Positions 9,430 through 39,188 of a stretch of 64,000 nt of DNA are shown one piece after another. Position 1 is the stretch's first letter, and every line of letters starts with the position of its first letter. A program made the position numbers and the translations under genes. The notes under the pieces are model-generated. The model ran no database searches. It was not told the DNA's origin and was given only the letters and a program-made list of their open reading frames with translations. Source of the DNA: Limisphaerales bacterium (GTDB lineage Bacteria > Verrucomicrobiota > Verrucomicrobiia > Limisphaerales > SXTU01); the NCBI GenBank assembly GCA_009773355.1, contig WRPG01000002.1:64391-128390 (forward strand). The letters run 5' to 3'.

Positions 9430-9506
9430 GTGATTGAAGCGCACGAACTCCGGGCGAGTTCAGACTCACAGTATCGGAATGGGGAAATTGCCCAAGACGT
9501 GAACCT

Positions 9507-11969: not shown

Positions 11970-12015
11970 GTCCACAGGATACCGGCGCGCAGTGGCAGAA
12001 CAAAGAAGCCGAACT

Positions 12016-12031
12016 TTGCCGGAGGCGGAAA
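12016..12031. promoter_or_regulatory. TTGCCG-N4-CGGAAA (one mismatch) candidate operator
   Basis: Lies in the divergent region between 11969 (minus) and 12113 (plus). On the minus strand the flanks resemble the 63-nt repeat: ccgcctccggcaaagtt..gcgcgccgg. Confidence 0.35.
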
Positions 12032-12112
12032 CATTCCATTGAATCGAAAAGACACCGCACATGAAAAGCCAGCTTGCCGAACTGCGATCTTTGACCTCAA
12101 TCTGTTCGCACT

Positions 12113-12746: not shown

Positions 12747-13140
12747 CGCCGTCTGTATAAGCCGCAATCGGGTGGCCGCTAGCCATCGTCTCTTTTTTCA
12801 CCCCGGCCAGTATGGTCCGTTCGCAAGGCTTGGTAGCATACCCACTCGCGCCAGCTCGGAGTGCTGCTAACCGCTTTCTAGCGACTTATTTTGCAGTCAT
12901 CGCGAAGCTAATCCTTTTTAGTTAAGGAGAAGGTTGAGGCTTTTATTTTAGCTGTCCGGTGCCTCCGATCCTTTGGAGATGGATTCGGCTGAGGCTGAAG
13001 CCCGGATTCTGAAAGCTATCTTCCAACGCGTTTGAACACCTCGCTTGCGCCCTGGGCGGTCCTGTCAGTGTCCGAAATGACTTGCAGGTAGTCTGGCAGC
13101 GACGTATTCAAACGGCGACATTTCTCCCAACCCGACTATC

Positions 13141-13791: not shown

Positions 13792-13842
13792 ACAGCCTAT
13801 TGTCAAGCCGCCAATTCTTGCTAGAGTTGGCCCCGTTCCTGA

Positions 13843-19356: not shown

Positions 19357-19706
19357 ATTCTGCCAATTCCTCCACCTTTCGCCATCGCATTGACCCTGTC
19401 ACCGCCGCTTGCATGAGCACGATGACGATGTTCGGCCGGTGTGGCAACGGCAGGGCGAACCACGAATCGCCCTCGGTCAATATTACGAGCTTGCTTGGGT
19501 CTGCGGCGAGTTTTCTTGATGTATTCATCGACCTTAGATTGTGGCGGTGGCATTTTGGGCATAGGTTGGAGTGGATTTCGAGTGATGCTACGCATTTGAA
19601 CCCAAACGTCAATTCCGCTGTGATTTCTACGATCTACATACATGATATGTAGGGGCTACCGCCCGTCACCACCCCATTTCCACGGCTTAACCGCCGCCCA
19701 CTACCT

Positions 19707-19861
19707 CCCCCAACGTGTCGTCGGCTACCGCCCGACTTATCTCTTTCTCCCTCCGTTCCTCCGGGCTAGCCGGCTAAAGGACATCTACCCGTTGTCCTTT
19801 AGCAAAAAGAGATAAGTCGGGCGGCCACGAACTATCGTTCTAGCCTACGACACGTTGGGGG
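19707..19861. repeat. nested inverted repeat of about 155 bp (candidate oriT, recombination site or structured RNA)
   Basis: CCCCCAACGTGTCGT (19707-19721) pairs with ACGACACGTTGGGGG (19847-19861). CCGCCCGACTTATCTCTTT (19728-19746) pairs with AAAGAGATAAGTCGGGCGG (19806-19824). Inner hairpin AAAGGACA/TGTCCTTT (19776-19800). GGCTAGCC palindrome at 19764-19771. Confidence 0.6.
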
Positions 19862-20055
19862 ACGGGTTTTAGAAGAAGGCGCTATCGCACCAACCACCCG
19901 CCCGCTATCGCGACCGGCTCGCCCGAAGGCGGAATCACCACGGGTGTTACCGGGTGAACACGACCGTCCAGCCCCGCAAAATCCTCAGATTTAGGAGAAA
20001 GAGTCGCCCCGAATGGGGCAGTTGCGAAGAGCCGCGCCCACTGGCGCGTCCGTTT

Positions 20056-20071
20056 TTGCCTGAGTTGGCAA
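20056..20071. promoter_or_regulatory. TTGCCT-N4-TGGCAA variant of the island palindrome
   Basis: TTGCCTGAGTTGGCAA, 212 nt upstream of the ATPase ATG at 20283. Same 16-nt geometry as the other sites. Confidence 0.35.
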
Positions 20072-20282
20072 GTTTCCGCGTCTGGATGGGAATCCCGTCT
20101 CCGCATATCCTGTGAGCGAAAGCCTCCCCATTCGGATTTCAAAACCAGCCGCCATTACCTCACCGGCCTGTCCCCAAACACTCTGCCGGCGTTTGCGCAC
20201 TTCGACTACACGCCACCACGGAAGGAAGTTCAACGACACGGGCACTTCCTCCGTGACCGGAGTGGCGGCTGGTTTTGCAACC

Positions 20283-21617
20283 ATGAAAGACGAACCCCGT
20301 ATCACCATTGGCGAGCGCGAAGGCTGGGGGGAACTCCGGCTTTTTGACATTTCTGTCGCCGACCAGCGCCAGCATATTTACATCATCGGGAAAACGGGAT
20401 CGGGCAAGACGACTCTATTACGAAATCTCATCGTGCAGCACATCGCCCTGGGGCATGGCGTTGGATTGATTGACCCTCACGGGGATTTAGCCGAGGAACT
20501 GTTGCACCACATTCCGCCCAAGCGCGCTGACCATCTGGTGTATTTCAATCCTGGAGACATTGAGTTTCCCATCGGCCTAAACTTGCTCGCCAATGTCGCA
20601 CCCGAAGACCGGCACCTGGTGGCGTCCGGCATTGTGGGCGCGTTCAAGGGCATCTGGCGTGAGTCCTGGGGTCCGCGTTTGGAATACATCCTCTACAACG
20701 CCGTCTCGGCGCTCCTTGATTGCCGGAACGCCACTCTCTTGGGCGTCAACCGAATGCTCACCGATGACACCTTCCGGGCGAAGGTGGTTCGGCAAATCAA
20801 AGACCCGTTTATCCGGGCGTTTTGGGCGGAGGAATATGCGGGCTACGACGAGCGGTTCAAGCGCGAGGCCATCGCGCCGATTCAGAACAAGCTCGGCCAG
20901 TTCCTTTTGAATCCGGTGGCTCGGAACATTCTGGGCCAGGTGAAATGCAAGGTGAAGATTCCATTCATCATGGACAACGAGCGGCTGTTCATCGCCAACC
21001 TGTCGAAAGGCCGGCTTGGACATGACAAGGCGAACCTGCTCGGCTCGCTGCTCGTGACCCAATTTCAACTTGGCGCGATGGCGCGGACGAACCGGCCCGA
21101 AGAGGAACGCCGCGATTTCTACCTGTTCATCGACGAGTTCCAGAATTTTTCCACCGACGCCTTTGCCTCGATTCTGGCGGAAGCGCGCAAGTATCGCCTG
21201 TGCATTTCTCTCTCGCACCAATACATTGACCAGCTTCCGCTGCCCGTCCGGCAGGCGGTGTTCGGCAACGTGGGAACGCTGATTGCCTTTCGCATCGGCA
21301 ATACCGATGCCGAGGTGATGGAAAAGGAGTTTGGCAACGCAATCCCCGCGAGCGCGCTCGTTGATCTGAATCGTTACGAGGCGGTGGTGAAGCTGCTTGA
21401 AGACGGCAGCAATCGGGAACCGTTCCGCGCGAGGATGCTGCCACCGCTGGAAAACCGCATTGGCCGGAAGGACAAGCTCATTGCCCGGTCACGGGAGCGG
21501 TTTGCCATGACGCGCGCGAAGATTGAGGACAAGTTGAAGCGGTGGATGGTGTCGGCCGAGCCAAAAAAGAAGAGGCAAGCTAATTGGATGCACCTTAAGA
21601 AGTATCACATTTTGTGA
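20283..21617 (+). CDS. TraD/VirD4/HerA-type P-loop ATPase without TM domain (coupling-protein-like)
   Basis: Walker A IIGKTGSGKTT. Walker B LFIDEFQNF. ARKYRLCISLSHQYIDQL and VGTLIAFRIGNTDAEVMEKEF. Paralogous to the core of 39195-42275. ATG at 20283 is preferred, because the upstream extension is non-coding-like and highly structured. Confidence 0.8.
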   Translation: MKDEPRITIGEREGWGELRLFDISVADQRQHIYIIGKTGSGKTTLLRNLIVQHIALGHGVGLIDPHGDLAEELLHHIPPKRADHLVYFNPGDIEFPIGLNLLANVAPEDRHLVASGIVGAFKGIWRESWGPRLEYILYNAVSALLDCRNATLLGVNRMLTDDTFRAKVVRQIKDPFIRAFWAEEYAGYDERFKREAIAPIQNKLGQFLLNPVARNILGQVKCKVKIPFIMDNERLFIANLSKGRLGHDKANLLGSLLVTQFQLGAMARTNRPEEERRDFYLFIDEFQNFSTDAFASILAEARKYRLCISLSHQYIDQLPLPVRQAVFGNVGTLIAFRIGNTDAEVMEKEFGNAIPASALVDLNRYEAVVKLLEDGSNREPFRARMLPPLENRIGRKDKLIARSRERFAMTRAKIEDKLKRWMVSAEPKKKRQANWMHLKKYHIL

Positions 21618-21662: not shown

Positions 21663-23138
21663 ATGGCTTTCAAATACTCACTTTTAATCGGCGTGGAGAA
21701 GTTTATCGATCCAAAGATTCCCAACGTTGGCCACGCCCAAAAGGACGCGGAGGCTTTGGCCGCAGTCTTGACAAAGATTGGCTATTCGCAAAGCGAGCAG
21801 ACTATCTTGGTGAACGAAAAGGCAACATGCACAAACGTCAAATACAATTTGAAGCAGATACTACGTTGCGCGAAGCCAGAGGATAGCATCCTCATTTTCT
21901 TTTCGAGTCACGGCTATTCCAACGGCGGAAAAACGTATCTTGTGTGCTACGACACACGTCAAGGTGACATGATCGGAACTTCAGAATCCTTGGAAGAAGT
22001 CTTTGCGCTATTGCGGACGACAGAAAGTAAACAAGTGCTTCTTTTCTTGGATTGCTGCCACGCAGGTTTGCAGTTTCCAGAGGGTGAAAAGAGTCTGTTA
22101 GCAACAATGACTTATGATGAAGTTCAAGAGTTCTTTAGTCAAAGCGAATACCGCGCTGCCTTCGCTTCGTGTAAGGATTCAGAAAAGTCTTACTGGTCTG
22201 ACGTTCTTGAGCACGGTGTCTGGACACATGTTCTTATTCAGGCCCTGGAAGGCAAAGAAAAAAGGATCTTAGAGGAAAAACGATACCTTCGTGCTGCCAA
22301 TTTGCAGGACTATCTCGCAAAGGCCGTCCCGGAACAATTGCGAATAGTGTTCTCGGAAAGGCGAACGCAGACGCCAATTCTTTTCGGCTCACTGAACAAT
22401 AATTTTCTTGTTGCGGATTTAGGCCCGCTCTTGGCGAAAGAAATATCTGAAACCGGAAATCAGGATTTTCCAGTAAAAGATTCCACATTCCGTAATGTTG
22501 AACGTGGTTCCGTAAAAAACTTAAGCGGTTTCGTAAAAGGACACAAAGTCCTTCCATATAAAAGCGCCGCCACGGAATCTTTTGTTCAAAACATTGGAGC
22601 TCCTGATGTAGAAGAAAAGGCCAATGAGCTATATGATCGGATTAAGAGCACGTTCGCTTATATTCGCAAAGATGTTAGCGTCTCCACGTCGGGGGCAAGT
22701 GCAAGTATCCGGGCAAAAGATTTCAATGTGGACTTTGAGCTTAAACAGAGCGCATCTGATCCAACTGAATACGTTTTAACCACTGAAGTCTCACACTTTT
22801 CGAGCCCCGCGATTGTTCATGCGGACACATTTAATGAAGTTTTCCAAGGAAATGTATCAACCCTCCGTATTGAGTTTCAGAACTCGCGAAATGTTGCGGA
22901 GTTTATTGATAAGATTGAAGAAACGCAAAACGAGGCGATTACGATCAATTCTTACCCGCCCGATAATTCTTTTTGTAAGTTCACAGTGGAGGGCGTATCG
23001 GCATCATTCGTTTTACACGCCAAACATTTGGATGTTAAACTGCCAGGAAAGCCTCCACGAGACATGGTTGAAGCACTGATTCAAGCAGGCAAAGTGTTGC
23101 TTCTGGATGACACAACGCCGAAGTTACTGACGCCGTGA
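21663..23138 (+). CDS. caspase-fold (peptidase C14-like) protease with an uncharacterised C-terminal domain of about 270 aa
   Basis: LLIGVEKF..AQKDAEALAAVL. His motif ILIFFSSHGY (H83). Cys motif LLFLDCCHAG (C131/C132). Markedly AT-richer than both neighbours. Confidence 0.7.
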   Translation: MAFKYSLLIGVEKFIDPKIPNVGHAQKDAEALAAVLTKIGYSQSEQTILVNEKATCTNVKYNLKQILRCAKPEDSILIFFSSHGYSNGGKTYLVCYDTRQGDMIGTSESLEEVFALLRTTESKQVLLFLDCCHAGLQFPEGEKSLLATMTYDEVQEFFSQSEYRAAFASCKDSEKSYWSDVLEHGVWTHVLIQALEGKEKRILEEKRYLRAANLQDYLAKAVPEQLRIVFSERRTQTPILFGSLNNNFLVADLGPLLAKEISETGNQDFPVKDSTFRNVERGSVKNLSGFVKGHKVLPYKSAATESFVQNIGAPDVEEKANELYDRIKSTFAYIRKDVSVSTSGASASIRAKDFNVDFELKQSASDPTEYVLTTEVSHFSSPAIVHADTFNEVFQGNVSTLRIEFQNSRNVAEFIDKIEETQNEAITINSYPPDNSFCKFTVEGVSASFVLHAKHLDVKLPGKPPRDMVEALIQAGKVLLLDDTTPKLLTP

Positions 23139-23241
23139 GTGCTATGATTTAACAGCAGCCGTGAGAACTTCCAGCAAACTTGCCCAAAAGCGCAAACCCT
23201 GACGCCTTCTTTGCCAGCCTGACTTTCGGCAAAGTGGAGGG

Positions 23242-24144
23242 ATGGAATCCCGCCTTCCCCGGTTCAAGCGTGTCCACACGGTAGTTCCCATCGAACTAAC
23301 CGACCGCGACCACCACATCATCCGGCTCGTCCGCCGGTATCGCTTTCTGCGTTCCAAACAAATCTCGGCTCTTGTGGGCGGCAGTCCGCAGCAGCTTTTG
23401 CGACGATTGAAGCTGCTCTACCACCACGGCTTTTTAGAACGCCCCCGCTGCCAGATTGATTATTACCACCAGCCCGGCTCCCGCAGCATCGCCTACGGGT
23501 TAGGGAATAAAGGAGGAGCGTTGTTGAAGCAGGAACTCCGCATTGCCGTGCGTCCCGCTTCTTGGGGTGAGAAGAACCGCGCAGTTGGCCGGATGTTCCT
23601 TGAGCACGCGCTTTTGGTTTCCGACGTGATGGTGACAATTGAACTGGCCTGCCGTAAACGAGGGATTCGACTCGTCACCGAGAGAGAACTTGCGCTTCCC
23701 GGCCAGCGCCAACCGTTCCAATGGAGGGTGAACATACACAGTCGGTTGAAACTTGGCGTCATCCCGGATCGCGTGTTCGCCCTGGAATTTCCCGACACCA
23801 GCGGCCAGACCCAGCGCGTGCATTTCTTCCTCGAAGCCGACCGGGGCACCATGCCGGTGACACGCCGCAATCTTTCCCAGACTTCGTTCCGCCGCAAGCT
23901 CCTCGCGTATGAGGCGACCTGGACACAAAACCTGCATCATACCCGTTTTGGTTTCCATCGCTTCCGGGTGCTCACGGTCACCACGAGTGCCGCGCGGGTG
24001 AAATCGCTGGTAGCAGCGTGTTCACAATTGGAGCGTGGACACGGCCTCTTTCTGTTTGCCGACCGAACAATTTTGTCGGGCGATATATTTTCTTCGACCT
24101 GGCAGACCGGCAAGCCGGGTGAGGCAGGCAGTTTGCTCGATTAG
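23242..24144 (+). CDS. replication-relaxation (Replic_Relax) family protein
   Basis: LTDRDHHIIRLVRRYRFLRSKQISALVGGSPQQLLRRLKLLYHHGFLERP is a winged-helix N-terminus typical of the family. ..FFLEADRGTM.. Context with a TraD-like ATPase. Confidence 0.7.
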   Translation: MESRLPRFKRVHTVVPIELTDRDHHIIRLVRRYRFLRSKQISALVGGSPQQLLRRLKLLYHHGFLERPRCQIDYYHQPGSRSIAYGLGNKGGALLKQELRIAVRPASWGEKNRAVGRMFLEHALLVSDVMVTIELACRKRGIRLVTERELALPGQRQPFQWRVNIHSRLKLGVIPDRVFALEFPDTSGQTQRVHFFLEADRGTMPVTRRNLSQTSFRRKLLAYEATWTQNLHHTRFGFHRFRVLTVTTSAARVKSLVAACSQLERGHGLFLFADRTILSGDIFSSTWQTGKPGEAGSLLD

Positions 24145-24149
24145 GCTGC

Positions 24150-24165
24150 TTGCCCGGAACGGCAA
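24150..24165. promoter_or_regulatory. TTGCCC-N4-CGGCAA variant of the island palindrome
   Basis: TTGCCCGGAACGGCAA, 106 nt upstream of the primase ATG. The downstream flank resembles the 63-nt repeat. Confidence 0.35.
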
Positions 24166-24270
24166 ACCTTCCCCTCTGGTGGGTTTGAGCCGGGGCGGTA
24201 GGATGCTCGGTGGAGTCGGTTCAATTCTTGAGCCGCACAGTTCATCACAACCCAAAACCACAGGAGCACT

Positions 24271-25305
24271 ATGTCGAAATCAAAGTTCGTTGACTTCAGG
24301 GCCGTCAAAGCGGCCATCACCATGGAACAGGTGCTTGAGCACTACGGCCTGCTTTCCAAGTTCAAACGGAGCGGAGACAGCTTGAGCGGTCCCTGTCCGA
24401 TTCACAAAGGCAACAACCCGACACAGTTCCGGGTGAGCACCAGCAAGAACGTCTGGAACTGCTTTTCGGAATGCAAACACGGTGGCAACACCCTGGACTT
24501 CATTGCCCGGATGGACGACGTGAGCATTCTCGCGGCGGCCAACAAGGCCATTGAATGGTTTCAGCTCGATCCCGAAGCCATGTCAGGGGATTCCGAAGCC
24601 GAAGGCAGGGAGCCGAGTGAAGCGCCGAAGGCCGGGGATGTTCCCCGACCGAAGCCAGCCGCAAAACCGGCATCGGTTCAAGAGAACGGAACGCCCAACA
24701 AGCCGTTGCAGTTCCGGCTCGACAAGCTTGAGCGCACGCATCCCTACCTGACCGAGCGCGGCCTCACGCCGGAAACCATCGTGGACTTTGGCGTCGGCTT
24801 TTGTGCCAAGGGCATGATGGCCAATCTCATTGCCATTCCGATACACAACGTCGAGGGCAAGGTCGTGGCGTATGCCGGACGCTGGCCGGGTGAACCCGCC
24901 GAGGACAACCCGAAATACAAACTCCCACCCGGTTTCCGAAAATCGTTGGAGTTGTTCAATCTTGACCGGGCCTGCAAGGAATCACCCGACAAGCCGCTCG
25001 TCATCGTCGAAAGATTCTTCGGCGCGATGAAATTGCATCAGCACGGCTACCGTAAGGTGGTGGCCCTCATGGGCAGCACCCTGTCCGCCGCGCAGGAGGA
25101 GTTGATTCGCCGACACACCGACAGCAACAGCCAGGTCATCGTCATGCTCGACGAGGACGAGGCGGGCCACGCGGGGCGAGAGGACATCGCCGTGCGCTTG
25201 TCCCAGTTCGTCTTCGTGAAGGTTCACGCGTTCGAGAAGGAAGGAATGCAGCCGGAGCACCTGAGCGCCGAGGAAGTGCAGCAACTCATCGGAGGTGTCC
25301 TGTGA
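24271..25305 (+). CDS. DNA primase-like protein (CHC2 zinc finger plus Toprim)
   Basis: CPIHKGNNPTQFRVSTSKNVWNCFSECKHGGNTLDFI is a CHC2 finger. Toprim motifs: VIVERFFGAMKL .. VALMGSTLS .. VIVMLDEDEAGHAG. Confidence 0.8.
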   Translation: MSKSKFVDFRAVKAAITMEQVLEHYGLLSKFKRSGDSLSGPCPIHKGNNPTQFRVSTSKNVWNCFSECKHGGNTLDFIARMDDVSILAAANKAIEWFQLDPEAMSGDSEAEGREPSEAPKAGDVPRPKPAAKPASVQENGTPNKPLQFRLDKLERTHPYLTERGLTPETIVDFGVGFCAKGMMANLIAIPIHNVEGKVVAYAGRWPGEPAEDNPKYKLPPGFRKSLELFNLDRACKESPDKPLVIVERFFGAMKLHQHGYRKVVALMGSTLSAAQEELIRRHTDSNSQVIVMLDEDEAGHAGREDIAVRLSQFVFVKVHAFEKEGMQPEHLSAEEVQQLIGGVL

Positions 25306-25628
25306 AGCGGTATGAAGGACGCCGCGAAGGGTTTGCCGTCATCGTCACGGTGGATGGCCGCCGGCTTAATCCCCGGCGCGACCTATGGAATCACAGTCCG
25401 AGCGGATTCGAGTGGGGCTATTGCGGCAGTGGCCCGGCCCAACTGGCCCTGGCGCTCCTGGCCGACCATTGCGGCAACGACGAGCAGGCGTTGAACTTCT
25501 ACCAGCGCTTCAAATGGGCGGTGGTCGTTGAATTGCCGGTGCGTCACTGGTCCTTGACCAGCGCGGGGATCGAGCTCGTGCTGCAAAGCTTGCGGGCGGC
25601 GGAACCGCTGCTGGAGGGCGTGCCATGA
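25302..25628 (+). CDS. DUF6166-like small protein
   Basis: SPSGFEWGYCGSGPAQLALALLADHCG motif. 4-nt overlap with the primase gene. Confidence 0.55.
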   Translation: MKRYEGRREGFAVIVTVDGRRLNPRRDLWNHSPSGFEWGYCGSGPAQLALALLADHCGNDEQALNFYQRFKWAVVVELPVRHWSLTSAGIELVLQSLRAAEPLLEGVP

Positions 25629-25921
25629 GCACACGGAAGCCACCCCGCGGTTTCGTTGACCCGAATCAAACTGAGTTCGGCATCCTCTGGCAGCCCTTGA
25701 GTCATCCGTTCCGGCTGCGGGCCGGGGACTTCATCCGGTTCAACGGCCGGCTCTGCTACGTGGTTCGCGTCAACGAGTGCGCGGCGGTGGTCATCATGAA
25801 CCGGCCGGTGCGTGATTTCAAAACACGCTTTGACAAGCCGGTTCGTTTCCAACCGCCGCCAAAGTTGTTCCGCATCTCACCGCAATCCGAAGTCCAAATC
25901 CTTAACCGCAAGGTAAAGTAA
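25625..25921 (+). CDS. hypothetical protein
   Basis: ATGA overlap with the upstream gene. Followed by a terminator-like hairpin. Confidence 0.45.
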   Translation: MSTRKPPRGFVDPNQTEFGILWQPLSHPFRLRAGDFIRFNGRLCYVVRVNECAAVVIMNRPVRDFKTRFDKPVRFQPPPKLFRISPQSEVQILNRKVK

Positions 25922-25929
25922 TCACACAA

Positions 25930-25959
25930 GGGCGATCCATCACGGTTCGCTCTTTTTTT
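25930..25959 (+). terminator. imperfect hairpin plus T-tract
   Basis: GGGCGATCC-atcac-GGTTCGCTC followed by TTTTTTT. Confidence 0.5.
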
Positions 25960-25966
25960 CTTGCCT

Positions 25967-26029
25967 GCCGCCTCCGGCAAAGCTGCCCGTCTTCATCGAA
26001 ACGGCGCGGGGACCTACGCTTCAAGGTGG
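25967..26029 (+). promoter_or_regulatory. copy 1 of a 63-nt repeated promoter/leader element
   Basis: GCCGCCTCCGGCAAAGCTGCCCGTCTTCATCGAAACGGCGCGGGGACCTACGCTTCAAGGTGG. 40 nt upstream of the ATG at 26070. Confidence 0.6.
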
Positions 26030-26069
26030 ATAGTTCTTCACAAACCAACCACCAACAGAAAGGAAAAAC

Positions 26070-27143
26070 ATGAGTGCAGTTATGGCAGCACCAGAGCGGG
26101 TCAGTTTGTATTACCGCGAAGGATCATCGGACAAGGTGTATCAGGCCGCGATTGAACCGGCAGGTGAATTGTTCGTTGTCAACTTCGCCTACGGTCGGCG
26201 TGGCTCGACGCTCACGACCGGGACGAAGACGGCTTCACCCGTGGATTACGGCACGGCGAAGCGGATCTTCACCAAACTGGTCAACGAAAAGAAAGCCAAG
26301 GGTTACACCGAAGGCGAGAACGGCACGCCGTATCAGCACACCGACAAGCAAGCGTCGGGGATATTGCCCCAGTTGCTCAATCCCATCGAGGAAGCCGGCG
26401 TGGAGAGGCTGCTGCATGATGATGATTATTGCGCGCAGGAGAAATTCGACGGGCGGCATCTCCTCGTCCGCAAGCAGGACGAGCACCTCGAAGGCATCAA
26501 CAAGAAGGGATTGCTCATCGGATTGCCGGAGACCGTGTCAAACGACCTCCGCAAGCTGCCCGGCAGTTTCATTCCCGATGGTGAATCCGTCGGTGATGAT
26601 TATCACGTCTTCGACCTGCTTGAACTGAACGGTGAAAACGTGCGGCCATTGCCGTATCGGACCCGGCTCGCGCGGCTGGTGAACCTGTTTTCGTTCCGCA
26701 CGCAGCATCCTCATGTCCGATTGGTCGAGACCGCGTTCACGACCGAGCGGAAGACCGCACTGTGGCAGCGGTTGCGGCGGGAGAACCGCGAGGGCATCGT
26801 CTTCAAACGCTTGGATGCGCCCTACACGCCGGGCAAGCCTAGCAGCGGCGGAGCGCAGTTGAAATTCAAGTTCGTCGCCACGCTGTCGGCGATTGTTGCC
26901 AAGGTGAACACCCGGCGCAGCGTGGAAATCAGCCTGCTCCAAGGCAGAAACCTGATTTCGTGCGGCAACGTCACCATCCCGGCCAATCACGACATTCCCA
27001 AAGTCGGTGCGGTCGTGGAAGTGCGCTTTCTCTACGCCCATCGCGAGAGTCACGCCCTCTATCAGCCGGTGTATCTCGGGCCGCGTGATGATGTGGAAGC
27101 CGGTGAGTGTCTGGCCGCTCAGCTCAAATACAAGGCAGAGTAA
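26070..27143 (+). CDS. WGR-domain / ATP-dependent DNA ligase fusion
   Basis: WGR: VSLYYREGSSDKVYQAAIEPAGELFVVNFAYGRRGS..AKRIFTKLVNEKKAKGYTE. Ligase motif I EKFDGRH. EGIVFKRLDAPYTPGK..LKFK (motifs IV/V). OB-like C-terminus. Confidence 0.8.
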   Translation: MSAVMAAPERVSLYYREGSSDKVYQAAIEPAGELFVVNFAYGRRGSTLTTGTKTASPVDYGTAKRIFTKLVNEKKAKGYTEGENGTPYQHTDKQASGILPQLLNPIEEAGVERLLHDDDYCAQEKFDGRHLLVRKQDEHLEGINKKGLLIGLPETVSNDLRKLPGSFIPDGESVGDDYHVFDLLELNGENVRPLPYRTRLARLVNLFSFRTQHPHVRLVETAFTTERKTALWQRLRRENREGIVFKRLDAPYTPGKPSSGGAQLKFKFVATLSAIVAKVNTRRSVEISLLQGRNLISCGNVTIPANHDIPKVGAVVEVRFLYAHRESHALYQPVYLGPRDDVEAGECLAAQLKYKAE

Positions 27144-27151
27144 CAACACAA

Positions 27152-27179
27152 GGGCGATCCAATTGGATCGCCCTTTTTT
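27152..27179 (+). terminator. rho-independent terminator
   Basis: Perfect GGGCGATCCAATTGGATCGCCC followed by TTTTTT. Confidence 0.75.
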
Positions 27180-27183
27180 GTTT

Positions 27184-27246
27184 GCCGCCTCCGGCAAAGC
27201 TGCCCGTCTTCATCGAAACGGCGCGGGGACATACGATTCAGGGTGG
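27184..27246 (+). promoter_or_regulatory. copy 2 of the 63-nt repeated element
   Basis: Identical to copy 3 and 3 mismatches from copy 1. Perfect TTGCCGCCTCCGGCAA at 27182-27197. 51 nt upstream of the ATG at 27298. Confidence 0.6.
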
Positions 27247-27297
27247 AATCACAGGGTTCTTTTCACATCATTACCACCCACAAAAAGGAGATTCAGT

Positions 27298-27627
27298 ATG
27301 GATGTTCATTGTTCAACCTGCGGGGAACCGTGGGACACATATCACCTCTGGCATGAGGCCGTGTTTGAAACGGGCTTGAGCCACGAGGAAGCCACGGCGT
27401 GGCGTTCACTGCCCCGCGCCGAGAAGCTCACCGAGCGTTACCGGCAGGAGTTCCGCGCCACTGGTTGGGAATTCGGCCAAGGCGTCATCAATGTCATTCG
27501 TTGCCCGGGCTGTCCCAAGGACGCACAACCCAACGTGGCTCGCGTTCACACCAAAGCCGCCTTGGAAGAACTCTTGGGTGACGACGAGGACGGACTGGCC
27601 GCCACCTTCGAGGACTACCGGTTATGA
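27298..27627 (+). CDS. hypothetical Zn-ribbon-like protein
   Basis: CSTCGEPW ... CPGCPKD Cys pairs. AAGGAG RBS 8 nt upstream. ATGA overlap with the next gene. Confidence 0.55.
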   Translation: MDVHCSTCGEPWDTYHLWHEAVFETGLSHEEATAWRSLPRAEKLTERYRQEFRATGWEFGQGVINVIRCPGCPKDAQPNVARVHTKAALEELLGDDEDGLAATFEDYRL

Positions 27628-28367
27628 TCCCCAAGAAACCGCCGCCCGGCGATTTCCGAAAAATCCTTGGACGCCTTTCCCATCGGCACAGCACCCGGCA
27701 AGTCTTCGACGCCTTCCTTTGCTTCGCAGCCTGTGCGCTCGCCGCCCAGACCCGCGAGGCGGAATACGTCGAAGAAGCCAAGCGCTGGGAAAAGCCGGAC
27801 TTGGAATTGTTCGCGGAAGCGTTCGCCGCGCTCGTCAGCGAAATGGAGTCCCGGCCCTTTGAAGACCTCATCGGCGGATACTACCTGGAGTTCGCCCTGT
27901 CCCAAAAGGGGCAGCAGTGGAACGGCGAGTTCCATACTCCCAAACCCATCTGCGACCTCATGGCCCGGATGACACTGGGCGATCTGGAATCATTGCCGGC
28001 GGAAGGCCCGATCACCGTTTGTGAACCGGCCTGTGGCGCGGGTGCGATGATTCTGTCGCTGGCCGAAGTCTGCCCGCCCGAGGTCCGCCGCCGTCTGCGC
28101 GTGACCGCCGTGGACATCAACCGCACCGCCTGCAACATGGCGTTCATCAACACGACCCTCTGGGGCATCCCCACGCGAGTCATCCACGGCAACTCGTTGT
28201 CCCTGGAATGTTGGGCCGCCTGGTCGAACATCCATTACCTCGCGCCGTGGTTGCCGCTGACGCTTCGCATCCAAACGCCCGAGGCGTTAGAACAAGGCCA
28301 GCCGCCGCAACCGGCTGAAATGGAGCGCATCAAGGCTTCCCTCGTTCAGCAGGAGCTGGTGTTTTGA
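27624..28367 (+). CDS. N6-adenine-methyltransferase-like SAM-binding protein lacking the catalytic (N/D)PP(Y/F) motif
   Basis: GEFHTPKPICDLMARM (motif X), VCEPACGAGAMIL (motif I), TAVDIN, IHGNSL. No NPPY/DPPY-type tetrapeptide anywhere and no target-recognition region. 247 aa. Confidence 0.65.
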   Translation: MIPKKPPPGDFRKILGRLSHRHSTRQVFDAFLCFAACALAAQTREAEYVEEAKRWEKPDLELFAEAFAALVSEMESRPFEDLIGGYYLEFALSQKGQQWNGEFHTPKPICDLMARMTLGDLESLPAEGPITVCEPACGAGAMILSLAEVCPPEVRRRLRVTAVDINRTACNMAFINTTLWGIPTRVIHGNSLSLECWAAWSNIHYLAPWLPLTLRIQTPEALEQGQPPQPAEMERIKASLVQQELVF

Positions 28368-28374
28368 TTCATCA

Positions 28375-28403
28375 CCCCTTTCGTTTTAACGGAAGGGGTT
28401 TTT
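28375..28403 (+). terminator. hairpin plus T-tract
   Basis: CCCCTTTCG-ttttaa-CGGAAGGGG followed by TTTTT. Confidence 0.6.
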
Positions 28404-28411
28404 CTATGCCT

Positions 28412-28474
28412 GCCGCCTCCGGCAAAGCTGCCCGTCTTCATCGAAACGGCGCGGGGACATACGATTCAGGGTGG
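28412..28474 (+). promoter_or_regulatory. copy 3 of the 63-nt repeated element
   Basis: Same 63-nt sequence as copy 2. 38 nt upstream of the ATG at 28513. Confidence 0.6.
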
Positions 28475-28512
28475 TTAGTTCTTCCACAAATCAACCACCA
28501 CAGGAGCATCAC

Positions 28513-29829
28513 ATGAAAAATCAGACATCGTATGATCGTATCACCGACCGTATCACCGCCTTGCTTACGCAAGGCACCGTTCCCTGGCACAAGCCGTGGA
28601 AAGCAAAGACCGGGCTGCCTCGGAACTTCGTCAGTCAAAAACCGTATCGCGGCATCAACGTCTTCTTGTTGATTGCCATGAGCTATGAATCACCGTTCTG
28701 GCTCACGTTCCGCCAGGCAGCACAGCTTGGCGCCTGCGTCCGCAAGGGCGAGAAGGCGTGCCCCGTCGTGTTCTGGAAACAGTGGCAGATTGAAGACAAG
28801 GACTCCGGCGAGCAGAAGAAGATTCCGCTGCTTCGCTTTCACCACGTCTTCAACGTCACCCAATGCGACGGGCTGAACATCGGCACCGAGCCGGTGCCAG
28901 CATCTGTCAATGGGATCTCCAAGCCAGAAGATATTGTGGCGCAGATGCCCCAGCCACCCGTCGTGAAGCACGGCATGTCCCGCGCCTATTATTCCCCTCA
29001 CGAAGATTGCGTGGGCTTGCCGACACGGGAACGGTTCGACACCCCGGAAGGCTACTACGCCACCTTGTTCCATGAGCTGGTCCATTCCACCGGCCACGAG
29101 AAGCGGTTGAAACGAGCCGCCCTCACGGAGTCCGCCGGCTTCGGTTCCAATCCCTACTGCAAAGAGGAATTGATTGCCGAAATGGGCGCGGCGTTTCTGT
29201 GCGGGCATGCTGAAATATCGGAGCGGGTGATTGACAACTCGGCGGCGTATCTCAACGGCTGGCTGGAGCAGTTGCAGAACGACAAAACTCTGATTGTGCA
29301 GGCGGCCGCACAGGCGCAGAAGGCCTGTGACTTCATCCTCGATGTCCGGCCCGAAGACGAAGGGCCGGCACCACAGCAGCCGAAGGAGTTCAAAGTCGTC
29401 GCGCTGCGGGAGTGCCCGACGCCTGAAGAAATGCAACTCTGCGACACGCCCCAGAGCGCCGCCGACTACTGGCGGGCGCACATCACCACGCACCCGTATT
29501 TCAACCCGGAGTGCGAATGCTTCGTGGTGTTGCACTTGAACACGAGGCGGCGCATCCGAGGCCACAACCTGGTTTCGACCGGCACGATGGACACGATTCT
29601 TGTCCATGCACGCGAGGTGTTCCGCACCGCCATCGCGAGCGGTGCGAGCGCCATTGTGCTCATGCACAACCATCCCAGCGGGGAGCCGGCACCGAGCGAA
29701 GCGGACATCAAAGTGACGCGCGACCTCATCCGGGCCGGGCAACTCCTAAAAATGGAGGTGCTGGACCACATTGTGGTCGGGAACCCAACGCATGCTAGTC
29801 TGCGGGAACTGGGATACTTCTTTCAGTGA
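28513..29829 (+). CDS. ArdC-like antirestriction protein (ssDNA-binding N-domain plus HExxH metalloprotease) fused to a RadC-like JAB/JAMM domain
   Basis: ArdC-N: GTVPWHKPW..PYRGINVFLL..PFWLTFRQAAQLGACVRKGEKA. Protease: TLFHELVHSTGHEKRL. RadC/JAMM: ASAIVLMHNHPSGEPAPSEADIKVTRDL. The track start at 28471 lies inside the repeat element. Confidence 0.8.
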   Translation: MKNQTSYDRITDRITALLTQGTVPWHKPWKAKTGLPRNFVSQKPYRGINVFLLIAMSYESPFWLTFRQAAQLGACVRKGEKACPVVFWKQWQIEDKDSGEQKKIPLLRFHHVFNVTQCDGLNIGTEPVPASVNGISKPEDIVAQMPQPPVVKHGMSRAYYSPHEDCVGLPTRERFDTPEGYYATLFHELVHSTGHEKRLKRAALTESAGFGSNPYCKEELIAEMGAAFLCGHAEISERVIDNSAAYLNGWLEQLQNDKTLIVQAAAQAQKACDFILDVRPEDEGPAPQQPKEFKVVALRECPTPEEMQLCDTPQSAADYWRAHITTHPYFNPECECFVVLHLNTRRRIRGHNLVSTGTMDTILVHAREVFRTAIASGASAIVLMHNHPSGEPAPSEADIKVTRDLIRAGQLLKMEVLDHIVVGNPTHASLRELGYFFQ

Positions 29830-29833: not shown

Positions 29834-29862
29834 ACGCCCGACCTCATCCGTCGGGCGTTTTC
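29834..29862 (+). terminator. rho-independent terminator
   Basis: ACGCCCGAC-ctcatcc-GTCGGGCGT followed by TTTT. Confidence 0.7.
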
Positions 29863-30042: not shown

Positions 30043-33000
30043 GTGATGAAAGTGCCCAGTCCAACTTTTCAAGCTAAAGGTTCTCCCTCCTTTGGATTTT
30101 TGTTTCCACTTAATCCACAAGGTGATCCGGCCACTGTTGGCGAAACAGAAAGGACCGGAACAGGAGAAAAAACCTGCCGCCCGAGGAGGATTATTGATTG
30201 GAAGCATCTCCTCTTTCCATTCCTGTTTTTTGTCCTAATTGCGATTCAAGCAGCTCCCGGTGCATTTACAGTGATTTCACCGGGCAGCACTCCTGCTCCT
30301 GGGGCAATCCTTTCCTCGCGAGCTCCCACATTTCGTTGGAACGCCTCGGCCGGGGCCGCAAGTTATGAATTTTATGTCCGAGATGTGACTGACAGCCCTA
30401 CCGGTCAACTTTTCACCTATCCAGTTAGCGGCACTAACACAGTGTTTCAGCCATATCCGGGTCGGTCGTATAAATGGAACGTTGGCGCTTATAGCGGCCC
30501 CAATCAGACGGGGACCTTCACACAGGCCGCCAATTCGTTTTGGTTTATATCGGCCCAATGTGACCTCTTAGTTACCGGCTCGGTTTCTTTGAGTCCAAAC
30601 CCTGTTACTGCCGGAAACACAGTGACTGTCGGTTACACTGTTAAAAACAATGGTAATGGAGATTCCGTCTCCTCTTCAAACCGCATCCAGATCAAAACCG
30701 GGTCCAGCACGACTACTCTAGTTGAAGGGTATTTTTATTTGCCCGCGATTCTGGCAGGCGCTTCCACCAACCTTTCAGCTCAGTTGTCGATTCCAAGCGG
30801 CACCTCATCAGGCACGTATTCGGTCCACACAATTCTGGATTCGCTTGATTACAATGTTCAAAGCAACACTAACAACGACATTCATTCAGAATACGACATT
30901 CTGACCATCAGCGCAGCCCAACCGCAAAGTTTCTTCCTAACATTAGTAACCAATCCGGTGATTGGTGGCTCAATTACTGCCAGCCCTGCGCCAGGAGGCA
31001 ATGGTAAATACTCGGCCAGCACGCTTGTGAATCTAACGGTTGCCCCTGGGGCAGGATATGCTTTCACTGGTTGGCAATTCAATGCCGGTTCAGGTTCGAC
31101 AGTTTCCAGCGTGCCGAACATGACGGCAACCGTCGGTATGGATAGCGACAGGACCGTCACAGCAGTTTTTTCTCAAACCGATGCTTCGGCTCCGGCGTTA
31201 ACAATCGCAAACCCGAGTGATGGGCAAACTTTTGTAAACAGTAGTATCACTGTTTCTGGCACTTCTACCGACAACAATCTTGGAAATAATGGTGTATCTT
31301 CCGTGACAATAAATGGTGTCCGGGCGAGCGGCGACACAGCCAATGGGTCAGGCACCGCTACGTGGACTGGAAGTGTTACACTAAGTCAAGCAACCACCAC
31401 CATTACAGTAGTTGCTCGTGACAATACTGTGAGTCAAAATGCAGTAACCAAAGTCATCACGGTTAATTATCAGCCAACACCTCCACCCGCTCCCACGGCC
31501 AGTTTTTCCGCTTCCGACCTCCAACCCGTGACGGGCAAGGAGGTCATTTTTGATGCGTCCGGTTCTTCTGGCAGCACGAGTTTGATGTTTGCTTGGAGTT
31601 CCGATGACGGCCAGACAGTCCCTTACAACGCCTCCAGCGCCGCCCGTCTTTCGTTCGGCTCCACGGGCACCCGCACTGTCACCCTCCAGGTGAAAGACAG
31701 TTACGATCAGGTTACCTCCACTTCACGGCAAATCACCGTTCAATCCCGCAACATTGGTGGCTCAGGGGGAAGCGGACAAGCATTCACCCCAGACCCGGTT
31801 AACATCGCCACCGGCAACTACATTTACGAGCACACTGATCTCCGCCTGCCAGGCATCGGCTTCCCATTTGAATTCAAGCGGTTCTACAACAGCAAGTTTG
31901 CCAACCAAACGGGCCGCCCAATCGGATTCGGCTGGACCCATTCCTACAACATTTCGCTGATCAGCACGACCACCAACGCGCTCATCACATTCGGGGACGG
32001 TCACGTTGAGACCCACATCCTTCAACCCGACAGCAGTTACCTCCCGGAGGCTGGCGTTTACGACCGCCTTCAGAAGATTGGCGATGGAACTTGGACGCTT
32101 ATCAACAAGGCGCAGATCCAGCAGAACTTCAACGCGCAGGGCCGGCTGGATTCCATTGTGGACAAGAACGGCAATCGGCTCGGACTGATCTACACCACCA
32201 ACCAGTTGACCTCCATCACGAACACAGCAGGACGCAGCGTCACGTTCACCATCGATCCCAACAACGGGTGCATCAGCTCCCTTTTGGACTCCATCGGGCG
32301 CACCATCCGATACGAGTATGACACGCAGACTAATCTCGTTCGAGCCGTGGACGCCAACAACCGCACGAACACGTTTGACTACGACAGCCTTCACCAGCTC
32401 ACCGACGCCTACGATGCCAAAGGCACGCGCTACGTGCGCAACGTCTATGACGCGGCCACGAAAGTTGTGGTCTCACAACTCGATGCCTACGACAAGCCCA
32501 CCTACTTGCGGTATGATTTCACCAACCGGGTGACGTGGGTCACGAACGCCCTTTCCAAAGTCGCGGTCCACACCTTCGACGACCGATTGCTAGTCACGAA
32601 CATCGTGGACGAAGCTGGCCACACAAATTCCTTCAACTACGACACGAACCGCAACCTCATCTGGTCCAGGGACAAGAACAGGAACATCACCACGTATGGC
32701 TACGACCAGCGGGGAAACGTCACGAACAAGACCGATGCCTACAGCAGCATCACGACCATCGAATACGATGCAAAGAACAACCCCACGCGCCGGGTGGACG
32801 CGCTCACCAACATCACGGCATTCGTTTACGATGGCATCGGCAATTTGACGGCCACCACTAACGCCGAGGGACACAGCAATCTCATTGCTTATGATCCACG
32901 CGGACTACCGTGGATTCTCACCGACGCGCGAGGCAACCGCACAACGAATGTTTTCGACACGCAGGCAAACCTCGTGGCCGTTGTGAATGCAAAAGGATTC

Positions 33001-35649: not shown

Positions 35650-35651
35650 CA

Positions 35652-36230
35652 ATGCCTTACACCACTACACAACCGCCGTTCACGCTCAAGTTTCGAGAGA
35701 TGTCCAAACAAGAGCTCAGGGACTATTTTCGATGGTTCTTTGACATACTTCCGAAGAGAATATTCGAACTAACCGACGCAGTCAGGCAAACACCTGGATT
35801 TGAAATGTGGCAGCCTGACAAAACAGCCGATTCACTCGGCGGACTTGGAAAATGGTTCGCGGGTCAAGTCGAGACGCGCCAGCGGACATCGGAAGAGCTA
35901 CAAGAAATTACCGTCCAATCCGCATATCCAATCCAAATCCCTGATGAAGAGTTGACGAATCGGACATTTTCTCTCGCGATGGACGTGGGGATGTATTTCA
36001 GTCAAGTTCTCGTAAACAACCATCCGTCACTCCGATGGGAGCAACTGTTGAACGATAAGAAGTATGTAGACTACGGCCAGCCTGTGCTCGTTGGGTTTGG
36101 GTCAGTTCCTCTCAATCCAGTGCAAATTGCAATAACACTTGCGTATGGGTTAGTGAGCAAAAAGCAAAGCGAGAAGCGATTGCGAGAACTTTACGATTAT
36201 TGGTCAAGGCAGGCCCATTCGAATATCTGA
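35652..36230 (+). CDS. putative cognate immunity protein
   Basis: Starts 3 nt after the RHS stop. 192 aa, no signal peptide. Position is typical for an immunity gene. Confidence 0.6.
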   Translation: MPYTTTQPPFTLKFREMSKQELRDYFRWFFDILPKRIFELTDAVRQTPGFEMWQPDKTADSLGGLGKWFAGQVETRQRTSEELQEITVQSAYPIQIPDEELTNRTFSLAMDVGMYFSQVLVNNHPSLRWEQLLNDKKYVDYGQPVLVGFGSVPLNPVQIAITLAYGLVSKKQSEKRLRELYDYWSRQAHSNI

Positions 36231-38483: not shown

Positions 38484-39188
38484 ATGTTCAACTTCTTCAA
38501 GAAAAAGGCCGACGTCATCGAGCACTGGATTGGCTTCGCCGAAAACTTTCAATTTCCTTCCGCCGACTTCTACGAAGCCGTTGAGAAGGAACTCGAAGCC
38601 CGCAAAGTGCCCGGCTTGGAAAAGTCCCGTGTCGAGTTCGCCGAAGGGGGCCTGCTCTCCGACCAGCGGGTGTATCTGCGAATGTTGCGCGAGCGGCTGG
38701 TGTTCGACGTGTGCGCCGCACCGTTCGGCACCCGCTTCTTTTTCTCCTGCCGCATGGCGGAGATTCCGGCCGTGATTCAACTTTGGCAGCTCGCTGTCGT
38801 GCTTCTCGGCTTGGGCATTTTTGCCGCGATCTTCTGGAAAATCTTCGGCTTCTTCTGGGGCAGCGTCGCGATGGTCACGGCCCTGCTTGTCAGCGTGTAT
38901 CTGCTCCGCAACGCCGTGGCGATGGGGCTCACAGACCTCGATGCTGCCCTCATCAAATCGCCCGTCCTTGGCCCCATCTACGAATGCTTCTTTCGCAAGG
39001 AAACATACTACCGCGTGGACACCCGCCTCATGTATCTCGACACCGTGTCGAACGTGGTGAAGAAGCTGGCCGAGGAAGTGACCGGAGCCAAGGGCGTGAA
39101 GCTCGTGCGCCAATACGAGCAATCGCCCATCTTGGGCGAACTCTACCGCCCCGTGTTGCCCCGTGTGGAGACGGAGCGCAAGCCGTAG
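38484..39188 (+). CDS. hypothetical membrane protein (two or three central TM helices)
   Basis: Soluble N-terminal domain of about 95 aa, then AVIQLWQLAVVLLGLGIFAAIFWKIFGFFWGSVAMVTALLVSVYLL. Ends 7 nt before the large ATPase gene. Confidence 0.55.
   Translation: MFNFFKKKADVIEHWIGFAENFQFPSADFYEAVEKELEARKVPGLEKSRVEFAEGGLLSDQRVYLRMLRERLVFDVCAAPFGTRFFFSCRMAEIPAVIQLWQLAVVLLGLGIFAAIFWKIFGFFWGSVAMVTALLVSVYLLRNAVAMGLTDLDAALIKSPVLGPIYECFFRKETYYRVDTRLMYLDTVSNVVKKLAEEVTGAKGVKLVRQYEQSPILGELYRPVLPRVETERKP

Follow-up and report, generated by a model that had tools for sequence, protein, structure and literature searches.

The DNA analysed here, a stretch of 64 kb from a Limisphaerales bacterium (phylum Verrucomicrobiota) which is referred to as the window in the following, harbours a row of seven genes between positions 24271 and 29829. 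All of them are located on the + strand and they are organised in four transcription units; this row will be called the cassette. A previous interpretation of the window made from its letters alone (the sequence-only reading) had described seven co-directional genes in four units, and our analysis confirms the open reading frames (ORFs), their coordinates and their domain assignments. The first unit starts with the gene of a DnaG-type primase (24271-25305), whose CHC2 zinc ribbon, DNAG_N and Toprim domains are evident from Pfam, NCBIfam and PHROG matches. Via a four-base overlap (GTGA) consistent with translational coupling it is connected to the gene of a DUF6166 protein (25302-25628; PF19663, E = 2.4e-30), which in turn shares an ATGA overlap with orf98 (25625-25921) encoding a small conserved protein. 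The second unit consists of a single gene (26070-27143) for an ATP-dependent DNA ligase with a WGR domain. The third unit is led by the gene of a protein of 109 amino acids designated Znrib (27298-27627) which, again through an ATGA overlap, is followed by the gene of a truncated HsdM-like (N6_Mtase) protein (27624-28367). The last unit is formed by an ArdC-RadC fusion (28513-29829) composed of ArdcN, MPTase-PolyVal and RadC domains. Every gene leading a unit is equipped with an AGGA/GGAG ribosome-binding site (RBS).

The ArdC part of the fusion comprises an N domain binding single-stranded DNA (ssDNA; PF08401, E = 4e-33) and a zincin protease domain (PF18818, E = 2e-36) with an intact HExxH motif (HELVH at residue 187). 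With ArdcN and an HExxH metalloprotease it thus displays both hallmarks of an anti-restriction ArdC, and in PHROG it matches phrog_7245, annotated as 'anti-restriction protein' (E = 2e-77). The catalytic motifs of the ligase (KFDG) and of the RadC-like JAB domain (HNHPSGEPAPSEAD) are likewise intact.

Terminators and junctions between the units

Each of the four units ends in a hairpin terminator on the + strand. The hairpin behind the first unit (25928-25954) is followed by a run of seven T residues (terminator 25928-25961; folding free energy -13.2 kcal/mol, z-score -5.9), while the one behind the ligase gene is a perfect hairpin of 11 bp (27150-27175) with a T-run (27150-27181; -22.2 kcal/mol, z = -6.6). 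The third terminator spans 28374-28405 (hairpin 28374-28399; -17.2 kcal/mol, z = -4.9) and the fourth 29834-29858 (z = -3.2). None of 200 shuffled sequences folds as stably as the terminator hairpins. The sequence-only reading had assigned terminators to the units after the first; this is correct for those units, but the first unit is closed by a hairpin as well.

The cassette junctions constitute a conserved block of about 165 nt, which begins at the preceding gene's stop codon and extends to the RBS of the following gene. It contains, in this order, the terminator (GGGCGATCC...GGGTCGCCC followed by the T-run), a palindrome, the pentamer CGTCT, CATACGCTTCA, a block of the 5′ untranslated region (UTR; TGGGTTCACAGGGTTC) and the RBS, and it is conserved in its entirety regardless of the downstream gene. 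Copy 1 of the repeat (25963-26069, +) carries the palindrome CTGCC-N6-GGCAA (25965-25980), CGTCT and the -10-like hexamer TACGCT (26015-26020), to which 5′ UTR and RBS are attached. In copy 2 (27182-27297, +) and copy 3 (28410-28512, +) the palindromes occupy positions 27182-27197 and 28410-28425, respectively, and the -10-like hexamer, TACGAT in both cases, is found at 27232-27237 and 28460-28465. A core of 47 nt is identical in all three copies (25967-26013, 27184-27230 and 28412-28458) and absent elsewhere in the 64 kb, with zero matches expected by chance, while the whole repeat of about 86 nt shows 79-92% identity among the copies. In addition, a diverged copy consisting of the palindrome TTGCCCGGAACGGCAA (24150-24165) and the -10-like hexamer TAGGAT (24199-24204) is present upstream of the primase gene (24150-24204, +), as detected by regular expression and by nhmmer. 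Since a terminator lies directly upstream of each junction, transcription needs to be restarted there. The earlier statement that a repeated element re-opens the units after the first is borne out by the threefold identical core, yet it has to be extended to the primase unit on account of its diverged copy. In the related loci described below, a T-run just upstream of the motif is found in 29 of 31 junctions preceding ArdC genes, in 16 of 16 preceding ligase genes and in 11 of 11 preceding Znrib genes, whereas it is rare elsewhere (4/62 primase and 0/13 relaxase promoters).

A scan with the sigma-70 consensus yielded no site within the junctions, the nearest match (28508-28536, +) straddling the start codon of the ArdC gene. 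In all three cassette UTRs a GGTGG...CCACC stem is possible just 5′ of the RBS (26030-26058, 27245-27285 and 28470-28500) with loops that differ from each other; this hairpin may be an mRNA-stabilising or translation-control element. We rejected a structured RNA or riboswitch, as no Rfam family matches anywhere in the window at gathering thresholds and RNA folding yields z-scores of +0.5 to -1.1 against shuffles (an 83-nt core folds with about -23 kcal/mol, z = +0.3 to +0.5). A small peptide encoded by the repeat (MPAASGKAARLHRNGAGTY) was also discarded as an artefact of DNA conservation, its reading frame being broken in two related loci (L006 and L007).

The cassette within an integrated element

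While the flanks of the window (1-8 kb and 46-64 kb) exhibit a GC content of 65-68%, that of the region in between (about 8-46 kb) amounts to 45-60%. This low-GC island of about 38 kb encodes two large serine recombinases (9944-11794, +, and 42607-44097), a coupling-protein-like ATPase resembling TrwB/TraG-D (20112-21617, +), a MOBC-type relaxase of the PF13814 (Replic_Relax) family (23242-24144, +) and a second ATPase. PF13814 is the counterpart of the CONJscan MobC relaxase profile (PMC5357655, Table 1) and its members join a PD-(D/E)XK nuclease fold to a helix-turn-helix (HTH) domain (PMC3424549). As relaxase, coupling protein and serine recombinases are united in one compositionally distinct island, the latter represents an integrated mobilizable or conjugative element (IME or ICE) of the MOBC type. 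The cassette is situated directly downstream of the coupling protein/relaxase region, which substantiates the previous claim that the row of genes belongs to a mobile element. A complete set of type IV secretion genes, as would characterise an ICE rather than an IME, was not found in the island; just a 1026-aa ATPase and a 234-aa partner (see below) are present. Neither tRNA genes nor a convincing flanking direct repeat were found at the island ends. Serine recombinases are compatible with the absence of a long att repeat.

For comparison, 24 genome loci and 80 metagenome loci were retrieved. The relaxase has more than 3300 homologues (about 70-85% identity among the matches listed) and the primase 419 relatives in metagenome contigs. 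All 24 genome loci obtained via the relaxase stem from Verrucomicrobiota metagenome-assembled genomes, while one distant homologue of the relaxase is present among 72,556 plasmids. Metagenomes from soil, peat and freshwater are rich in members of the element family.

A motif shared by the whole element and its candidate regulator

In the related loci the motif follows the consensus TTGCC-N6-GGCAA, with CGTCT 6-7 nt further on and TAnnnT at about positions 50-56 counted from the start of the palindrome; this offset of the -10-like hexamer is fixed in each class of copy that was read. An nhmmer profile built from 116 copies detects the motif 169 times in 106 related sequences. The gene strand carries 160 of these copies, and 167 of the 169 are followed by an ORF of at least 50 aa within 58-200 nt. 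The genes following the motif encode the primase (63), ArdC (31), the ligase (16), the relaxase (13), Znrib (11), a family termed f21 (7), the coupling protein (6) and an XRE protein (3).

The window itself contains eight copies, three near-identical and five diverged, all of which are inside the island. Besides the cassette copies (25965, 27182 and 28410) and that of the primase gene (24150), they precede the coupling-protein gene (20056-20111), the relaxase gene (a degenerate copy at 23180-23207, 62 nt before the ATG), a 56-aa ORF followed by the gene of serine recombinase 1 (9616-9671) and, on the - strand (9522), an XRE-family HTH gene (9106-9444, -; HTH_3 match) whose own promoter bears the palindrome in reverse orientation (9507-9522). 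Because the motif is found before the coupling-protein, relaxase, recombinase and XRE genes, it is to be regarded as a putative promoter/operator signal of the entire element instead of one private to the cassette, and the earlier view of the repeat as a cassette-specific restart signal has to be abandoned. As expected for a regulon, one conserved sequence is situated upstream of several operons including that of ardC.

The XRE gene and a RuvC-like gene located 3′ of it (8588-9103, -) are conserved together with the reversed motif in two further loci (L007 and L022). XRE gene and motif co-occur in six of six sequences. Conversely, four of four loci which possess the same left-end module without the XRE gene lack the motif, and three of these (L009, L016 and L019) contain a different HTH protein instead. 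A distant locus without XRE gene and TTGCC motif (L010) features its own, different repeated terminator-promoter junction of the TGGTAGGAT type. At 11070-14305 of this locus three tandem primase paralogues are separated by such junctions, the architecture being the same and the regulatory sequence different. This correlation points to the XRE protein as the putative cognate regulator of the motif.

Mosaic gene content of related cassettes

Our survey of cassettes comprised the 33 sequences that extend for 4.5 kb or more beyond the primase gene. They exhibit 31 distinct gene orders drawn from about eleven small gene families. The primase gene is the first gene in all 33 cassettes. DUF6166 occurs in 29 of them, RadC in 26, ArdC in 25, orf98 in 22, a 95-aa protein which is not encoded in the window (f12) in 20 and Znrib in 19. 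Less frequent are the WGR ligase (12, always preceded by the motif), a SymE-like toxin (7), the dead methyltransferase-like protein (6), f21 (5) and DUF1281 (4). Wherever ArdC is present (25/33), ArdC/RadC end the conserved row, although the SymE-like toxin gene can follow the ArdC/RadC genes or sit between them and orf98 is found after them in two loci. Primase, Znrib, ligase, f21 and ArdC lead units, while the remaining families ride behind. The module is hence a mosaic of insulated expression units, each of which consists of a standard junction of about 165 nt and one to three translationally coupled genes.

Junctions within one element resemble each other more closely (71%) than they resemble those before the same gene in other elements (63%; permutation p < 0.0005). 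Furthermore, 18 of 47 junctions have their nearest neighbour before a different gene in another locus.

Families of the cassette proteins

In most relatives ArdC and RadC are encoded by separate adjacent genes, the fusion observed in the window being the minority state. Five of 36 called ArdC-family ORFs exceed 400 aa, two of which belong to the present element itself (window and locus L001). Their length suggests that these ORFs are fusions, and at least one of the other long ones may be fused to a methyltransferase-like domain instead.

Full-length relatives of the ligase are present in 19 plasmids. The C-terminal part of the ligase matches the PADLOC profile HEAT-ARM_XIII (E = 3e-13), and on a Mycolicibacterium plasmid (L108, 5620-8071) a WGR ligase of 50% identity adjoins a HEAT-repeat protein. 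WGR ligases may therefore also be part of a candidate defence system. The possibility that the cassette as a whole is a member of a known defence system was rejected, as the PADLOC matches are at domain level only. Homologues of the DUF6166 protein are found on 109 plasmids, mostly haloarchaeal megaplasmids, which is unexpected for a protein translationally coupled to a bacterial DnaG-type primase.

The protein encoded by orf98 possesses a basic N-terminus and a beta-rich core. It has 887 homologues, all of them without any Pfam domain, and a profile search retrieved 157 clusters among 1.84 billion representatives. Pfam, NCBIfam, PHROG and PADLOC contain no match to it, no homologue was found in plasmids, and ten longer proteins that were checked as potential fusions do not comprise any informative Pfam domain (one sub-threshold mucin-like match). 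Its AlphaFold model is unusable (predicted local distance difference test, pLDDT, of 48). Znrib is characterised by four invariant cysteines (C5, C8, C69 and C72) and an acidic C-terminal tail. It has 877 homologues, equally devoid of Pfam domains, and a single plasmid homologue which resides in a small-ORF array of Ralstonia pB1903. The AlphaFold model of Znrib is of moderate quality (pLDDT 77) and has no structural neighbour with E < 0.1 in PDB or BFVD. The homology and structure searches bring out the anti-restriction nature of ArdC but no detectable fold relative of the small ORFs. Both orf98 and Znrib represent strongly conserved families of about 880 proteins each which are restricted to the present kind of element. 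Look-ups that started from their homologues, and were thus independent of the relaxase and primase anchors, lead to the same slot of the same element family. The small ORFs are therefore not chromosomal housekeeping genes; a mainly housekeeping context would have spoken against the previous interpretation.

The methyltransferase-like protein matches positions 11-122 of the 311 positions of the N6_Mtase profile only. The S-adenosylmethionine-binding motif I (EPACGAG) is present, while the catalytic motif IV, (N/D)PP(F/Y/W), is absent; the chain stops about 55 residues past motif III. As motif I is retained and motif IV lost, the protein is not an active N6-adenine (orphan) methyltransferase and had rightly been called crippled. 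It belongs to a family with a conserved form of about 250 aa and matches phrog_5696 over its full length (E = 1e-48), while in one phage protein family (phrog_23459) the methyltransferase-like protein is fused to ArdC. Homologues are present in 2066 plasmids, 1456 (70%) of which are conjugative, and in pCAR1 the homologous gene is located inside a long array of small co-directional ORFs. It is possible, though speculative, that this dead HsdM-like protein acts as a decoy for subunits of type I restriction-modification enzymes.

A proposed establishment module

On balance we consider it rather probable that an integrated Verrucomicrobiota element, mobilizable or conjugative, has its establishment module in the seven genes and that this module is subject to a repressor-controlled regulon which, by analogy with the plasmid systems described below, is fired in a naive cell. 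In this respect the sequence-only reading, which had proposed an anti-defence/establishment cassette, is partly supported and was right in kind.

In the model that we propose, the palindrome would be the operator of the element's own XRE protein, which would also control its own promoter. All motif-bearing promoters would be shut in the established element and would fire together as soon as the repressor is absent or inactivated. Such firing would be expected chiefly when the DNA has newly entered a naive cell and become double-stranded (zygotic induction or transcriptional overshoot), and also in an induced donor. The resulting burst would supply the primase, probably together with the DUF6166 protein, for priming of the complementary strand, and the WGR ligase, presumably nick-sensing, for sealing it. 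ArdC, with the RadC-type JAB domain as a partner, would counteract restriction, and Znrib, orf98 and the catalytically dead HsdM-like protein would be provided as accessory proteins of unassigned action. The identical junction cores appear long enough for homologous exchange, and homologous recombination at the near-identical junctions would add, delete and swap units between related elements. As such junctions would permit the exchange of units, we propose that this is the reason why nearly every element carries a different gene set.

Several observations weigh against this interpretation. Beyond ArdC, no cassette gene matches a characterised anti-defence family or has a documented anti-defence role; primase and ligase are enzymes of DNA processing. 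The anti-defence/establishment content claimed previously is backed by the bona fide ArdC, by the insulated operons with their shared regulatory sequence and by the occurrence of short methyltransferase-like homologues on conjugative plasmids. The WGR domain of the ligase also matches a PADLOC candidate defence profile (WGR_XIII, E = 4e-26). A canonical -35 box is missing in the junctions and the promoter is deduced from a weak -10-like hexamer. The centre of the palindrome is located about 55 nt upstream of the presumed transcription start, a position that suits an activator as well as a repressor, and the association of XRE gene and motif comprises ten loci which are phylogenetically not independent. 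With respect to the exchange of units, the signal of junction homogenisation is modest, seven of 47 nearest neighbours originating from the same locus, and a hybrid of junctions 2 and 3 agrees with the single junction of locus L002 by 72%, which is no better than copy 1. Lastly, no mating-pore genes were recognised in the island (no matches to VirB6, VirB8, VirB9 or VirB10), although divergent ones could escape detection.

Comparison with known systems

The closest parallels to the proposed establishment module are provided by p576 and the pLS20 family (EGeRS2/Reg576 and EGeRS1), in which separate operons, one of them with ardC, are each situated behind a conserved regulatory sequence (PMC6294495, PMC8708921). 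In p576 this sequence is a strong promoter plus the operator of an autoregulated plasmid-encoded repressor, Reg576, which represses four establishment promoters including that of ardC in addition to its own (PMC6294495). In the pLS20 family the genes for establishment show high variability and are distributed over several operons that follow repeated regulatory sequences (PMC8708921). As in the present cassettes, the content varies between relatives, is mostly of unassigned function and includes methyltransferases. In contrast to these plasmids, the present element is integrated, belongs to Verrucomicrobiota, uses a MOBC relaxase and is known from its sequence alone. Its operator would be a 16-bp palindrome as opposed to dual TTATCCC heptamers, and its candidate regulator is of the XRE instead of the ribbon-helix-helix type. 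Moreover, the motif also covers transfer and recombination genes, and the junction is a complete module including the upstream terminator, the UTR and the RBS.

In R388, ArdK represses its own promoter along with PardC, Pssb and three further promoters of maintenance/establishment genes, and a burst of expression from these promoters follows conjugation (PMC3937220). The recipient is where ArdC counters type I restriction (PMC7213743). R388 employs separate regulators for establishment and transfer (ArdK, KorA and StbA), whereas a single motif spans both in the present element; neither sequences nor regulators are homologous. With the Frpo/ssi leading regions of F and ColIb-P9 (Samuel et al. 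2024) the cassette shares the co-directional arrays of small genes including anti-restriction, methyltransferase and toxin-antitoxin genes as well as the repeated regulatory elements before several genes (PMC11541004). It differs from them by the lack of a long Frpo-like hairpin and by its probable location on the relaxase side. As in the CloDF13-type module, consisting of the coupling protein MobB and the relaxase MobC, the element has its own coupling protein beside a MOBC relaxase, and its transfer module may resemble that of CloDF13 itself. CloDF13, however, differs from the element, which is integrated, about 38 kb in size and equipped with serine recombinases, an establishment cassette of its own and, besides the coupling protein, another large ATPase.

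Alternative explanations

Among the alternatives, the one to be taken most seriously, albeit unlikely in our opinion, is that the motif is not a repressor operator but a promoter depending on an activator or on an alternative sigma factor, in which case an element or host factor would need to be made first. TTGCC and CGTCT, which are about 18 nt apart as read from the sequences, could for instance serve as -35 and -10 boxes of an extracytoplasmic function (ECF)-like sigma factor, or an activator could bind upstream at the palindrome; both the missing canonical -35 box and the location of the palindrome upstream of the presumed core promoter would agree with this. In addition, the start codon of the relaxase gene follows the -10-like hexamer after about 8 nt, so that a sigma-70 reading would require a leaderless mRNA. 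On the other hand, TAnnnT is conserved at a fixed offset although the search pattern did not demand this hexamer, the conserved backbone of the element showed no gene for a sigma factor, and the regulators of the known analogues are all repressors (PMC3937220, PMC6294495). A sigma-54 promoter (-24/-12) was rejected upon manual comparison, since GGCA and TTGC have neither the right spacing nor the right order.

We hold it quite unlikely that the cassette is mainly a replication or DNA-processing module of the excised element for which defence evasion is secondary. In such a scenario rolling-circle replication would be started by the relaxase; primers for the lagging strand would come from the primase together with DUF6166, sealing of this strand would be the task of the ligase, and ssDNA would be dealt with by ArdC/RadC. 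The invariable first position of the primase gene next to the relaxase gene, the presence of DUF6166 in most cassettes, the intact ligase motif, the long conserved hairpin upstream, which is a potential single-strand origin, and the frequency of DUF6166 on haloarchaeal plasmids not typed as mobilizable are in line with it. None of ligase, Znrib, orf98 and the methyltransferase-like gene is indispensable, however: they occur in 6 to 22 of the 33 cassettes, which would not be expected for a core replication function. Besides, an anti-restriction role of ArdC has been demonstrated (PMC7213743), members of the methyltransferase-like family are found mainly on conjugative plasmids, in small-ORF arrays, and high gene turnover is the pattern of establishment and anti-defence genes (PMC8708921).

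Less probable still is a true leading-region anti-defence island, that is, a cassette which is the first DNA to enter and is transcribed from the single strand with the repeat acting as ssDNA promoter. The content of the cassette is indeed similar to that of leading regions, with ArdC and a methyltransferase-like protein in the window and DUF1281 and SymE in relatives (PMC11541004); ArdC is a known anti-defence gene of such regions. Also, all cassette genes are co-directional and nearly all copies of the motif are on one strand. Yet, there is no Frpo-like ssDNA promoter, as the intergenic elements form local hairpins of 5 to 8 bp only and no stem able to rebuild a -35/-10 duplex; the junctions fold as ssDNA with -15 to -17 kcal/mol (z = -0.9 to -1.7, both strands). 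Furthermore, genes for donor functions, namely those of coupling protein, relaxase and recombinase, are preceded by the motif as well.

The location of the cassette would likewise argue against early entry. The non-coding region upstream of the coupling-protein gene contains, at a distance of about 250 nt, a conserved hairpin of roughly 160 nt (19704-19864) which, as ssDNA, is predicted to fold with -72 kcal/mol (z = -11.8). BLAST finds it in the same position in 28 related loci with about 64-72% identity in the most distant ones; sixteen base pairs show compensatory changes, while the basal stem (CCCAACGTGTCG/CGACACGTTGGG) is invariant in sequence. The same conserved non-coding region contains a 19-nt palindrome (CTACATACATGATATGTAG) at 19634-19652. 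By its sequence and predicted fold this hairpin is the best candidate for an origin of transfer (oriT) or a single-strand origin, and the only strong one for oriT. The hairpin precedes the coupling-protein and relaxase genes and the cassette follows them, so that the cassette, at a distance of 4.4 kb, is on the relaxase side of this candidate. Relaxase genes usually enter the recipient last and the relaxase side is usually the lagging one. Moreover, in the reference survey MOBC elements show no enrichment of anti-defence genes within leading regions and were excluded from the leading-region study for this reason (PMC11541004). The designation 'leading region' given to the cassette in the sequence-only reading is therefore not upheld. 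Either transfer has another polarity in this family, or the cassette does not have to enter early since its expression would be set off by a lack of repressor.

Finally, we regard an integron-like cassette system, with the junctions as its sites of site-specific recombination, as highly improbable. Repeated structured junctions do flank units of one or few genes whose order varies between elements, but no tyrosine integrase of the IntI type was found, the recombinases being of the large serine type and located at the element ends; the junctions, unlike attC, carry terminator, putative promoter and RBS and are always co-oriented with the genes; and all copies are in a fixed slot.

Implications

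Returning to the establishment module under repressor control, we tentatively suggest, as a rather more doubtful extension, that the junction works as an 'expression socket' which offers control by one repressor as well as homology for the integrase-free swapping of genes. This socket may hold new anti-defence families, namely the acidic four-Cys protein Znrib, orf98, the 95-aa f12 and the catalytically dead HsdM-like protein, the last of which may poison type I restriction complexes. The placement of the cassette on the relaxase side would then explain why a leading-region enrichment of MOBC elements is missing in published surveys, and offers a possible reason why these elements do not fit the leading-region rule.

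So far, establishment and anti-defence modules have been dissected in a few plasmids of Proteobacteria and Firmicutes only. The same logic of small insulated operons, one repeated regulatory sequence and a fast turnover of content is encountered here in integrated elements of Verrucomicrobiota, in which this previously undescribed element family is very common. The regulon is endowed with a searchable DNA signature, TTGCC-N6-GGCAA-N6-7-CGTCT, and novel roles in anti-restriction or establishment may be sought among Znrib, orf98, f12, f21 and the dead HsdM-like protein. If the pair of regulator and operator works as proposed, the standard junction is a potentially useful part for genetic tools, of which the phylum has almost none.

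Further features of the island

The island also carries cargo. Cargo genes including that of a DUF1559/N-methyl protein are located between serine recombinase 1 and the coupling protein. Between coupling protein and relaxase, a caspase-domain (Peptidase_C14) protein is encoded (21663-23138), which is probably defence-type cargo as it is found only once among the related loci and is hit by the PADLOC 'caspase' profile (E = 2e-16). Downstream of the cassette, the gene of an RHS/YD-repeat toxin of 1868 aa and a gene for a 192-aa protein, probably conferring immunity, follow (30043-36230). They are inserted between the cassette and a gene pair encoding a 234-aa protein of a family without assignment (38484-39188) and the 1026-aa ATPase with DUF8128, DUF87, TrwB_AAD_bind and TraG-D_C domains (39195-42275); in related elements other cargo is found at this place. 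In many loci this conserved pair closes the backbone before the second serine recombinase; possibly it forms the core of a DNA-transfer machine that has escaped recognition. The gene of an RCC1/Ig-repeat protein (36303-38435) contains at least six tandem repeats of 117 nt (37080-37898; 64-75% identity) which encode RCC1 blades. In two related loci (L111 and L113, 12-2702) a pair similar to a cyclic-oligonucleotide-based antiphage signalling system (CBASS), consisting of a SMODS/DncV-like cyclase and a TIR-STING effector, is found just upstream of the coupling-protein gene, and the element family therefore ferries defence systems besides counter-defence genes.

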